From: an uncultured Verrucomicrobiota bacterium
Lineage (GTDB): Bacteria; Verrucomicrobiota; Kiritimatiellia; RFP12; UBA1067
Direction of reading: 5' to 3'
Assembly (NCBI GenBank): GCA_947305775.1
Contig: CAMZEN010000001.1
Span: 3,852-67,851, forward strand
Length of the DNA stretch: 64,000 bases
The translations under genes were made by a program, and so were the position numbers. Of the stretch, positions 61,253-61,572 are shown piece by piece. Below the pieces are notes generated by a model. The model was not told the origin of the DNA, did not search any database, and saw only the letters and a program-made list of their open reading frames with translations. Numbering within the stretch: the first letter of the stretch is position 1; every line of letters starts with the position of its first letter.

Positions 61253-61484
61253 GGCTACTTCTTCTCTTTCTTTTGCCGCGTATTATCTCATATTCCCGCC
61301 CCGCACGCAAGCCGCCAAATCAACCATACGTCGGCCACTATTGCCTATCCGTATGGGATATTGTCCCTATTGGGTTTGAGCAAACGACCTATTGGTTTGG
61401 GTTTTGGCCTATTGGCACCCCATTAAGCAAACCTTTTGCACCAAAGGAAATTTTGCTGCGCAGCAAGCGTCTTGGAAGATCGTG

Positions 61485-61572
61485 CGCTGTAACTTGGGAG
61501 ATCGTACGCTGTAACTTGGGAGAGCGTACGCTGTAATTTGGGAGAGCGTACGCTGTAATTTGGGAGAGCGGG
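61485..61572. repeat. 4 x 22-bp tandem repeat containing the REP left end
   Basis: cgctgtaa(c/t)ttgggaga(t/g)cgta units at 61485, 61507, 61529, 61551; the last runs into element copy 5. Confidence 0.9.

Follow-up and report, generated by a model that had tools for sequence, protein, structure and literature searches.

Background

The closest described systems are the REPINs and their RAYT transposases, in which inverted GC-rich REP hairpins flank a spacer and fold together into one long hairpin, present in tens of mostly intergenic copies, along with solo REPs and a Y1 HUH transposase gene that has the same repeats on its flanks (Bertels and Rainey 2011, PMC3116915; PMC8266576). RAYTs cleave at dinucleotides situated on each side of a REP hairpin, and any 3'-OH can serve them for joining (PMC8266576). 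REP families are often reiterated in tandem together with flanking DNA segments (PMC3116915; Di Nocera et al. 2013, PMC3733652), and a second, non-transpositional route to REP clusters has been proposed (PMC3116915, PMC3733652). What is repeated in tandem REPIN clusters and BIMEs is a whole REP or REPIN; the units span about 40 to 180 bp or more and, in BIMEs, alternate in orientation.

We analysed a stretch of 64,000 nucleotides (hereafter the window) from an uncultured Verrucomicrobiota bacterium, together with its whole assembly (2.70 Mb, 106 contigs, 56.6% G+C) and related genomes. By its PriA relatives, the organism is an uncultured member of the Kiritimatiellia of animal gut or rumen. 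The hairpin family found there, REP-A, shares with the REPIN-RAYT systems the paired hairpins, the copy number and location, and the solo REPs; in the sister strain L158, a RAYT-like gene flanked by REP-A copies is a candidate for the transposase gene. REP-A differs in having no GTAG or CGTC tag and a conserved tail (CTTGGGAGA), and in that no cognate gene was found in its own genome. A further difference is that its termini are iterated as half-hairpin units, which are not described in PMC3116915 or PMC8266576. Unlike BIMEs, these units measure 15-24 bp, are all direct and hold, in the genome of the window, at most one stem arm, so that they are unable to form a hairpin; the sole unit with a whole hairpin is a 45-nt copy in L021.

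Two other groups of elements are related in part. Like the Rickettsia palindromic elements and intragenic REPs outlined in PMC3733652, REP-A provides palindromes in frame in linkers of an essential gene (priA); unlike the Rickettsia elements as outlined there, the priA inserts bear frame-preserving end arrays and form a strain-level allelic series that extends up to a RAYT cassette. Subterminal hairpins and the absence of a target-site duplication recall the IS200/IS605 elements. In the IS608 model summarised in PMC8266576, cleavage sites lie some 10-20 nt outside the hairpin foot, and short guide sequences recognise both target and end. REP-A differs from IS608 in being non-autonomous and symmetric, and hairpin self-targeting and end iteration are not among the IS608 features given in that summary.

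The REP-A element

REP-A is a REPIN of 79-83 nt (about 80 bp) made of two inverted hairpins around a spacer, in the order 9-nt tail CTTGGGAGA, GCGGGCG-TCT-CGCCCGC, spacer, GCGGGCG-AGA-CGCCCGC and inverse tail TCTCCCA(A)G. The spacer, of about 29 nt, is partly palindromic and is seen in both orientations. With at most two mismatches allowed, the hairpin core GCGGGCGTCTCGCCCGC is found 10 times in the window against 0.13 expected, and the whole assembly holds 89 cores. Five doublets and one solo hairpin make up the REP-A content of the window (Table 1). The stem is preserved in 13 copies of the assembly that carry the compensatory pair GCGGACG...CGTCCGC. Copy 5 is predicted to fold as a single long hairpin of -38 kcal/mol (z = -10.4 with respect to shuffled sequences); the corresponding values are -36.4 kcal/mol (z = -10.6) for copy 2 and -21.6 kcal/mol (z = -8.8) for the solo hairpin. 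No GTAG or CGTC tag is present at the 5' foot of the hairpin, and in nearly all REP-A copies GGGAGA directly precedes GCGGGCG. REP-A can be regarded as a REP/RAYT system by association, though without the GTAG tag.

A reading of REP-A as a DDE-type MITE was rejected, because the flanks of simple copies share no target-site duplication. The pair TCATTCA/TCATTA was likewise discarded as a target-site duplication, being confined to one subfamily, and no hairpin has such a loop. An Rfam scan of the window gave no known RNA family. Only three truncated REP-A copies were identified in a BLAST screen, and a search for empty sites with joined flanks returned only self-hits and one uninformative paralogue on contig C24.

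Table 1. REP-A copies and end-associated arrays in the window (TRF, Tandem Repeats Finder)
Feature	Positions	Strand	Remarks
24-bp array	29707..29842	+	period 24, 5.7 copies, 79% matches (TRF); abuts copy 1 on the left
REP-A REPIN copy 1	29837..29918	+	in frame, priA linker (site 1)
Two 24-mer-type units	30170..30204	+	left of copy 2; GAGGCTATCCACTTGGGGAATTGC, then GCGGCTCCCCA entering the element
REP-A REPIN copy 2	30205..30287	+	in frame, priA loop before Walker A (site 2)
18-bp array	30276..30366	+	period 18, 5.1 copies (TRF); begins within the right end of copy 2
REP-A REPIN copy 3	32094..32175	+	intergenic; without terminal array; left hairpin is the compensatory variant GCGGACGTCTCGTCCGC
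Degenerate outer end unit CTGGAAAAGC and filler GGCTTGA	39440..39456	+	left of copy 4
REP-A REPIN copy 4	39457..39536	+	spacer reversed in orientation
22-bp array	61471..61570	+	period 22, 4.5 copies, 94% matches (TRF); enters copy 5
Four 22-bp units CTTGGGAGAGCGTACGCTGTAA	61471..61558	+	left of copy 5
REP-A REPIN copy 5	61559..61637	+	adjoins 22-bp units on the left
22-bp array	61812..61860	+	period 22, 2.3 copies (TRF); precedes the solo REP
Single 22-bp unit CTTGGGAGAGCGGGCGCTGTAA	61822..61843	+	tail, intact stem arm and filler CTGTAA
Solo REP-A hairpin	61844..61877	+	14-bp stem

Terminal units and their fillers

All four tandem arrays that the initial annotation had placed at element ends were recovered by TRF, and the additional unit that it had noted at 61823 corresponds to the TRF array 61812-61860. 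The unit of the 24-bp array is GGCTCCCGACCTGGGAAATTGCGC, translated as (A/E)APDLGNC repeats; that of the 18-bp array, CGCTCTCCCAAGATGCGT, consists of the right tail, 3 nt of stem and 6 nt more, and gives SLSQ(D/G)A repeats. In each of the four units before copy 5, the 9-nt tail is combined with a stem arm that has diverged to GCGTACG and with CTGTAA as the filler. The outer unit of copy 4 starts 1 nt past a stop codon.

From a right end outward, a typical unit shows the distal arm CGCCCGC, then the tail TCTCCCA(A)G and last a 4-7-nt filler. Of 16 distinguishable unit families, about 10 retain precisely 6-7 nt of the distal arm and the others 2-4 nt, as scored by eye from the sequences, so that inner breakpoints cluster at the loop/stem junction. 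No unit in the genome of the window enters the loop or the opposite arm.

Fillers are particular to an element subfamily (e.g. TTACAG, TCATTA, TGAATGA, TGTAGGGCC and RGTG) and turn up again at unrelated loci, and no cleavage motif is shared among them. In most arrays the filler differs from the sequence that lies beyond the outermost copy. The description of a unit as the element end plus a few flanking bases consequently fits some cases only: a plain duplication of the end and its local flank is consistent with the array at C23 2010 and with the 18-mers of priA, but in most intergenic units the filler is a subfamily-specific terminal extension. Plain duplication also fits L120, where the outer unit and its own element share a private stem variant. 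In the 61823 family, the paralogues on C11, C12 and C70 are without the unit yet have the same outer flank GGGCGTAATA (paralogue alignment), so that the unit sits between the outermost tail and the hairpin. The filler of this unit, CTGTAA, is shared with the 61471 family; TAATA would be expected from a local duplication.

The intergenic unit families measure 16, 17, 19, 19, 20, 21, 22, 22, 22 and 22 nt, so the proposal that intergenic lengths are not multiples of 3 is mostly correct, with one family of 21 nt as the exception (1/10). Finally, the possibility that arrays existed beforehand and served as insertion targets was rejected, since the arrays on the two sides of an element are unlike, each holding the end of its own side.

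Frequency of end arrays in REP-A and REP-B

Tandem arrays are commoner at element ends than elsewhere, as the initial annotation had supposed. An extra copy of the end at a period of 15-22 nt accompanies 27 of 85 REP-A ends against 0.32 expected (binomial P ~3e-44; 9-mer GC[TG]CTCCCA with at most one mismatch, expectation from random positions), a count that includes units copied along with the element and thus not only independent events. The remaining 58 ends carry no extra unit, and at 13 ends the extra copies number two to five. A period of 22 is the most frequent (25/52 units). Among the 196 TRF arrays of period 14-40 in the whole genome, 17 abut a REP-A core and include its end.

The same genome harbors a second hairpin family, REP-B (GCGGGGACWGTCCCCGC, 85 copies, 17-nt hairpin), which matches REP-A in GC-richness and stability. 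Stem end and flank recur within 30 nt at only 3 of 170 REP-B ends, showing that a hairpin as such is insufficient for arrays. Array formation belongs to REP-A, whose end is a hot spot, both strong and specific, for short direct repeats containing that end. The same pattern is present in two related species that bear REP-A, for example in L136 (three 16-nt units), L135 and L120, and REP-A end arrays are also found in the priA genes of L019 and L021.

Unit number and divergence along the arrays

Unit number is unstable between paralogues and strains. Loci with the same flank hold 2, 3 or 4 units (C23 1959, C90 489, C91 4147), and the 61471 family has one extra unit in C12, C38, C96 and C25-918 and four in the window and C40, numbers that short-read MAG assemblies may misreport, with three arrays ending at contig ends. 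The orthologous G008 locus (L120) of the 61471 array has one 21-nt unit. Several arrays are 100% identical internally (TRF), which points to recent expansion. The direct head-to-tail units, variable in number among alleles and paralogues, have the form of a slippage-type minisatellite, a term that describes their expansion and not their origin.

Divergence had been said to rise with distance from the element. The 61471 array does display a clean gradient, but across the 14 arrays with at least two extra units there is a trend only: in 5 arrays the outermost unit has diverged further from the element end than the innermost, in 1 less far, and in 8 the two are equal (p = 0.22). On C40, the proximal unit has an intact arm and the distal units an old GTAC variant. 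Edge units of tandem arrays homogenise poorly, which would yield the same trend. The earlier idea of a directional repeat generator acting by nicking or slippage is thus retained for the array hot spot at the end and for the unstable unit number, but not for directionality.

Carriage of units with the element and insertion into hairpins

The outer unit of copy 4 and its filler are also present at C8 67564 and C77 5221, where homology stops just past the outer unit; this unit therefore travelled with the element. The 61471 and 61823 arrays belong to a composite repeat, longer than 300 bp, that precedes leucine-rich-repeat surface-protein genes, and paralogous leucine-rich-repeat loci with the composite repeat were identified on C11, C12, C25, C38, C70 and C96. 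A paralogue of the 61471 array is located on C40, and the 61823 unit is also seen on C25 and C36. Since units are inherited when the element is copied, the arrays were not all spawned locally. The three sites regarded as independent in the initial annotation are not fully so, as the priA inserts share the 24-mer unit and the 61471 and 61823 units have paralogues. The genome of the window nevertheless holds at least 12 distinct unit families.

One nested configuration, the only clear case found, is located on C91 (880-1050), where a complete element with both fillers (TCATTCA ... TCATTA) lies inside the right hairpin of a second, more diverged copy. The inner element stands between GCGGGC and CGCCCGC of that hairpin, and the arrangement is exactly that of an element plus one outer unit. 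In the array at C91 1-92, units meet at the same junction of GCGGGC with TCATTCA. In addition, at priA site 2 of the sister strain L159 (ENA ERZ27257202 k141_129614), a foreign segment of 66 nt holding CCCTTGAGGG and CCCATAGGG motifs splits the left REP-A hairpin with the frame kept. As both inserts split hairpins, the hairpin is an insertion target.

Other repeats were noted in the window and its genome. A perfect 22-bp repeat (GGAAACAGCCTCGTTTCAGGTC, 2.7 copies) at 61987-62046 of the window precedes a leucine-rich-repeat surface-protein gene (62388 onward), and its unit occurs again at C3 104005 and 104297, C11 54873 and C45 9392. Dispersed arrays of 21-23-bp units with about 3.8 copies each (e.g. 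C6 44124, C7 27206, C8 27316, C16 29704, C22 20480 and C54 2487) contain a small palindrome per unit (GTACTAGTAC, GGTGCGCACC, CCCTAGGG, TCTCACTGTGAGA) and often lie no more than 100-200 bp from REP-A copies. A 372-bp tandem repeat of 3.4 copies with nested 18- and 21-bp periodicities occupies 55441-56739 of the window and presumably encodes a repeat-rich protein. Finally, 28 TRF rows of the genome have a period of 69, which could represent a long repeat protein or a spaced-repeat array.

REP-A in the priA gene

The PriA frame of the window, 864 aa, is intact despite its inserts, and most orthologues measure 707-760 aa and are without them. Site 1 is the linker between the 3'-DNA-binding and winged-helix domains, and site 2 the loop before the Walker A motif. 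Site 1 is occupied in the genome of the window only, same-genus orthologues being without the insert, and its units resemble those of site 2. Site 2 is occupied in three related lineages; L019, L021, L158, L159 and L160 all have it filled. Within the L019 species alone it holds a solo REP with 3 CCCCCAAG copies (L019), a REPIN with 5 CCCCCAAG copies (L160), an interrupted REPIN with 3 CCCCCAAG copies (L159) or a full RAYT cassette (L158). At the position of the 18-bp array, the relatives have CCCCCAAG units of 15/18 nt, in 3 to 5 copies according to the strain.

The 24-mer unit matches GRATTGY-GAKGCYNCCCRA-CTGGG, the extended left terminus found ahead of each of the three REPINs around the L158 RAYT-like gene. 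The outer copy at site 2 measures 45 nt in L021, where its hairpin is intact, 33 nt in L158, where part of the hairpin is deleted, and 24 nt in the window, where no hairpin is left. From this comparison, the 24-mers have a partly separate history, as an outer duplicate of the extended left terminus whose hairpin was lost in frame. The PriA proteins P0004 and P0005 are identical but for one 45-nt duplication. All priA unit variants (15, 18, 24, 33 or 45 nt) keep the frame, in agreement with the frame selection proposed earlier, which is however trivial for an intact essential gene.

A different repeat (GGLTAQP...) is found at three places in the PriA of L047 (Verrucomicrobia bacterium UBA1629), with five 18-nt NPPNLP units then following at site 2; in-frame end-associated arrays are thus not limited to REP-A.

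Transposase genes

A search of the window's genome (92% complete) for a Y1 gene with REP-A on its flanks found none; of its six PF01797 matches, four lie beside REP-B in a 1.25-kb unit, one beside REP-C (C20), and one is broken (C53). Pairs of REP-A copies 1-3 kb apart in this genome enclose ordinary genes. Among 29 Y1 loci in same-genus genomes, only that of L120 is near REP-A, and its gene is of REP-B type. As no cognate gene was found in a genome that is 92% complete, REP-A activity here may be past.

A candidate cognate gene was identified in a sister strain. A search with the PriA insert region retrieved P0002, a PriA of 1087 aa from another sample, and its contig L158 (ENA ERZ27256983 k141_1790263, 2116-3260) carries, in frame at priA site 2, a REPtron made of a RAYT-like gene and three REP-A REPINs, two on its left and one on its right. 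The gene has an HUH motif (HVH), a tyrosine motif (YIRKNA) and a PF01797 match; it matches NF047646 with E = 3.6e-19 and 69 bits, under the 80-bit cut-off. All three REPINs have the same 19-nt left extension (GRATTGY GAKGCCGCCCRA) and 1-3 right units.

The other Y1 genes of the window's genome belong to different repeat families. The 1.25-kb unit (C6 68281-69575, C40 23805-25098, C45 430-1641, C14 9106-10260) encodes a RAYT-like product of about 290 aa (HHV..., HFH, YVELNPVRA) flanked by REP-B, with two further REP-B in frame inside the gene. To our knowledge, RAYT genes in several copies are unusual. A third Y1 gene, at C20 12021-13151, encodes 377 aa with a C-terminal helix-turn-helix-like tail and is bracketed by a 34-nt palindrome (AGTGAGAATWTAGGTCWGACCTAWATTCTCACTT, REP-C), further copies of which occur on C42.

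Origin of the terminal arrays

The reading that we place first, tentatively and at a little less than an even chance, is that units were founded through the transposase, then changed in number by slippage, and spread with the element. In this reading, three parts make up a terminal unit: the distal arm of the stem, the 9-nt tail TCTCCCA(A)G and 4-7 nt of subfamily-specific extension. Its founding would involve transposase-linked cutting and joining at the loop/stem junction, by one of two routes: a copy may insert into the hairpin of another, after which the large direct repeats collapse, or an aberrant cleavage and strand transfer may take place between the hairpin site and the normal end site. 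Slippage or unequal recombination would then alter the unit number, which is seen to be polymorphic, and unit-bearing ends are carried to new sites when the element is copied. The same raw material would be filtered by frame in priA, where two further processes would contribute, ordinary tandem duplication of the end with its neighbouring sequence and an in-frame deletion that removes the hairpin of the outer copy. The breakpoint at the loop/stem junction, the nested copy and the contrast with REP-B favour such an element-specific, enzyme-linked founding, as do the subfamily-specific fillers, the intact arm of the proximal unit on C40, the carriage of units with the element and the RAYT-like gene beside REP-A in L158. 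Against it, no RAYT gene flanked by REP-A was found in the window's own genome, a single clear nested configuration was seen, some arrays fit plain duplication, the fillers share no cleavage motif, polarity is not significant, and the nested-insertion route requires a second step, the collapse, for clean arrays to arise.

Slippage without any enzyme is less likely but a serious rival: the hairpin would stall the replication fork, a chance microhomology would seed a duplication, and slippage would expand it, with no role for a transposase. The flank of the 61823 family does have a direct repeat, GGGCG, 21-22 nt from the stem arm, but the filler of this very unit is not the one that a local duplication predicts. 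True local flank is repeated in some arrays (C23 2010 and the priA 18-mers), the outer unit of L120 has the private stem variant of its own element, and a clean 45-nt tandem duplication separates P0004 from P0005; some arrays are best explained by pure slippage, and unit number varies as slippage predicts. Most fillers, however, differ from the local flank and are seen again at unrelated loci, the breakpoints favour the loop/stem junction over varied microhomologies, and the REP-B hairpins, of similar stability, are almost without arrays.

A more specific form of the enzyme-linked origin, which we consider unlikely, would take the unit boundaries as RAYT footprints. The enzyme would cut at the loop/stem junction and 13-16 nt past the foot, and the resulting end module of 20-22 nt would be re-inserted at the hairpin, regenerating the site, which would make REP-A a self-targeting directional repeat generator.

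It is still more doubtful that the arrays are selected as binding sites. Transposon ends such as those of Tn7 and Mu contain multiple transposase-binding sites, and by analogy half-ends spaced 22 bp apart, i.e. two helical turns, could offer extra docking sites to the RAYT or to a host DNA-binding protein; the way in which the arrays form would then matter less. The dominance of period 22 (25/52 units), the many other phased palindrome arrays of 21-23 bp in the genome, the carriage of units with the element and their presence in all three REPINs by the L158 RAYT gene would agree with this, but periods vary from 15 to 24, 58 of 85 ends are without an extra unit, outer units decay, and in priA the period is set by the reading frame. 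Lastly, a mis-assembled multi-copy repeat of a short-read metagenome bin is a scarcely credible source of the arrays, for although several stand at contig ends (C40, C91, C100) of a genome in 106 contigs, those of the window lie within a 127-kb contig, a frame of 864 codons is open across the priA arrays, and arrays homologous to these were assembled independently from other samples (L019, L021, L158, L159, L160).

Significance

The half-end arrays of REP-A are a little-described variant of the known clustering of REPs, and may mark the cut sites of the transposase. Of the movement of REPINs by RAYTs, only cleavage and joining in vitro are known; the sharp boundary of the REP-A units yields predictions of where cleavage and target sites lie, and a candidate cognate enzyme is at hand in the sister strain. 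If the units were indeed RAYT footprints, they would provide the first sequence-level read-out of the cutting and pasting of REPINs in vivo; if they arose by plain slippage, they would be well-documented yet ordinary hairpin-associated minisatellites. The priA locus can hold, within one species, a solo REP, a REPIN, a REPIN with a foreign insert or a RAYT cassette, and a mobile hairpin can thereby supply an essential replication protein with variable peptide repeats that fit its reading frame.
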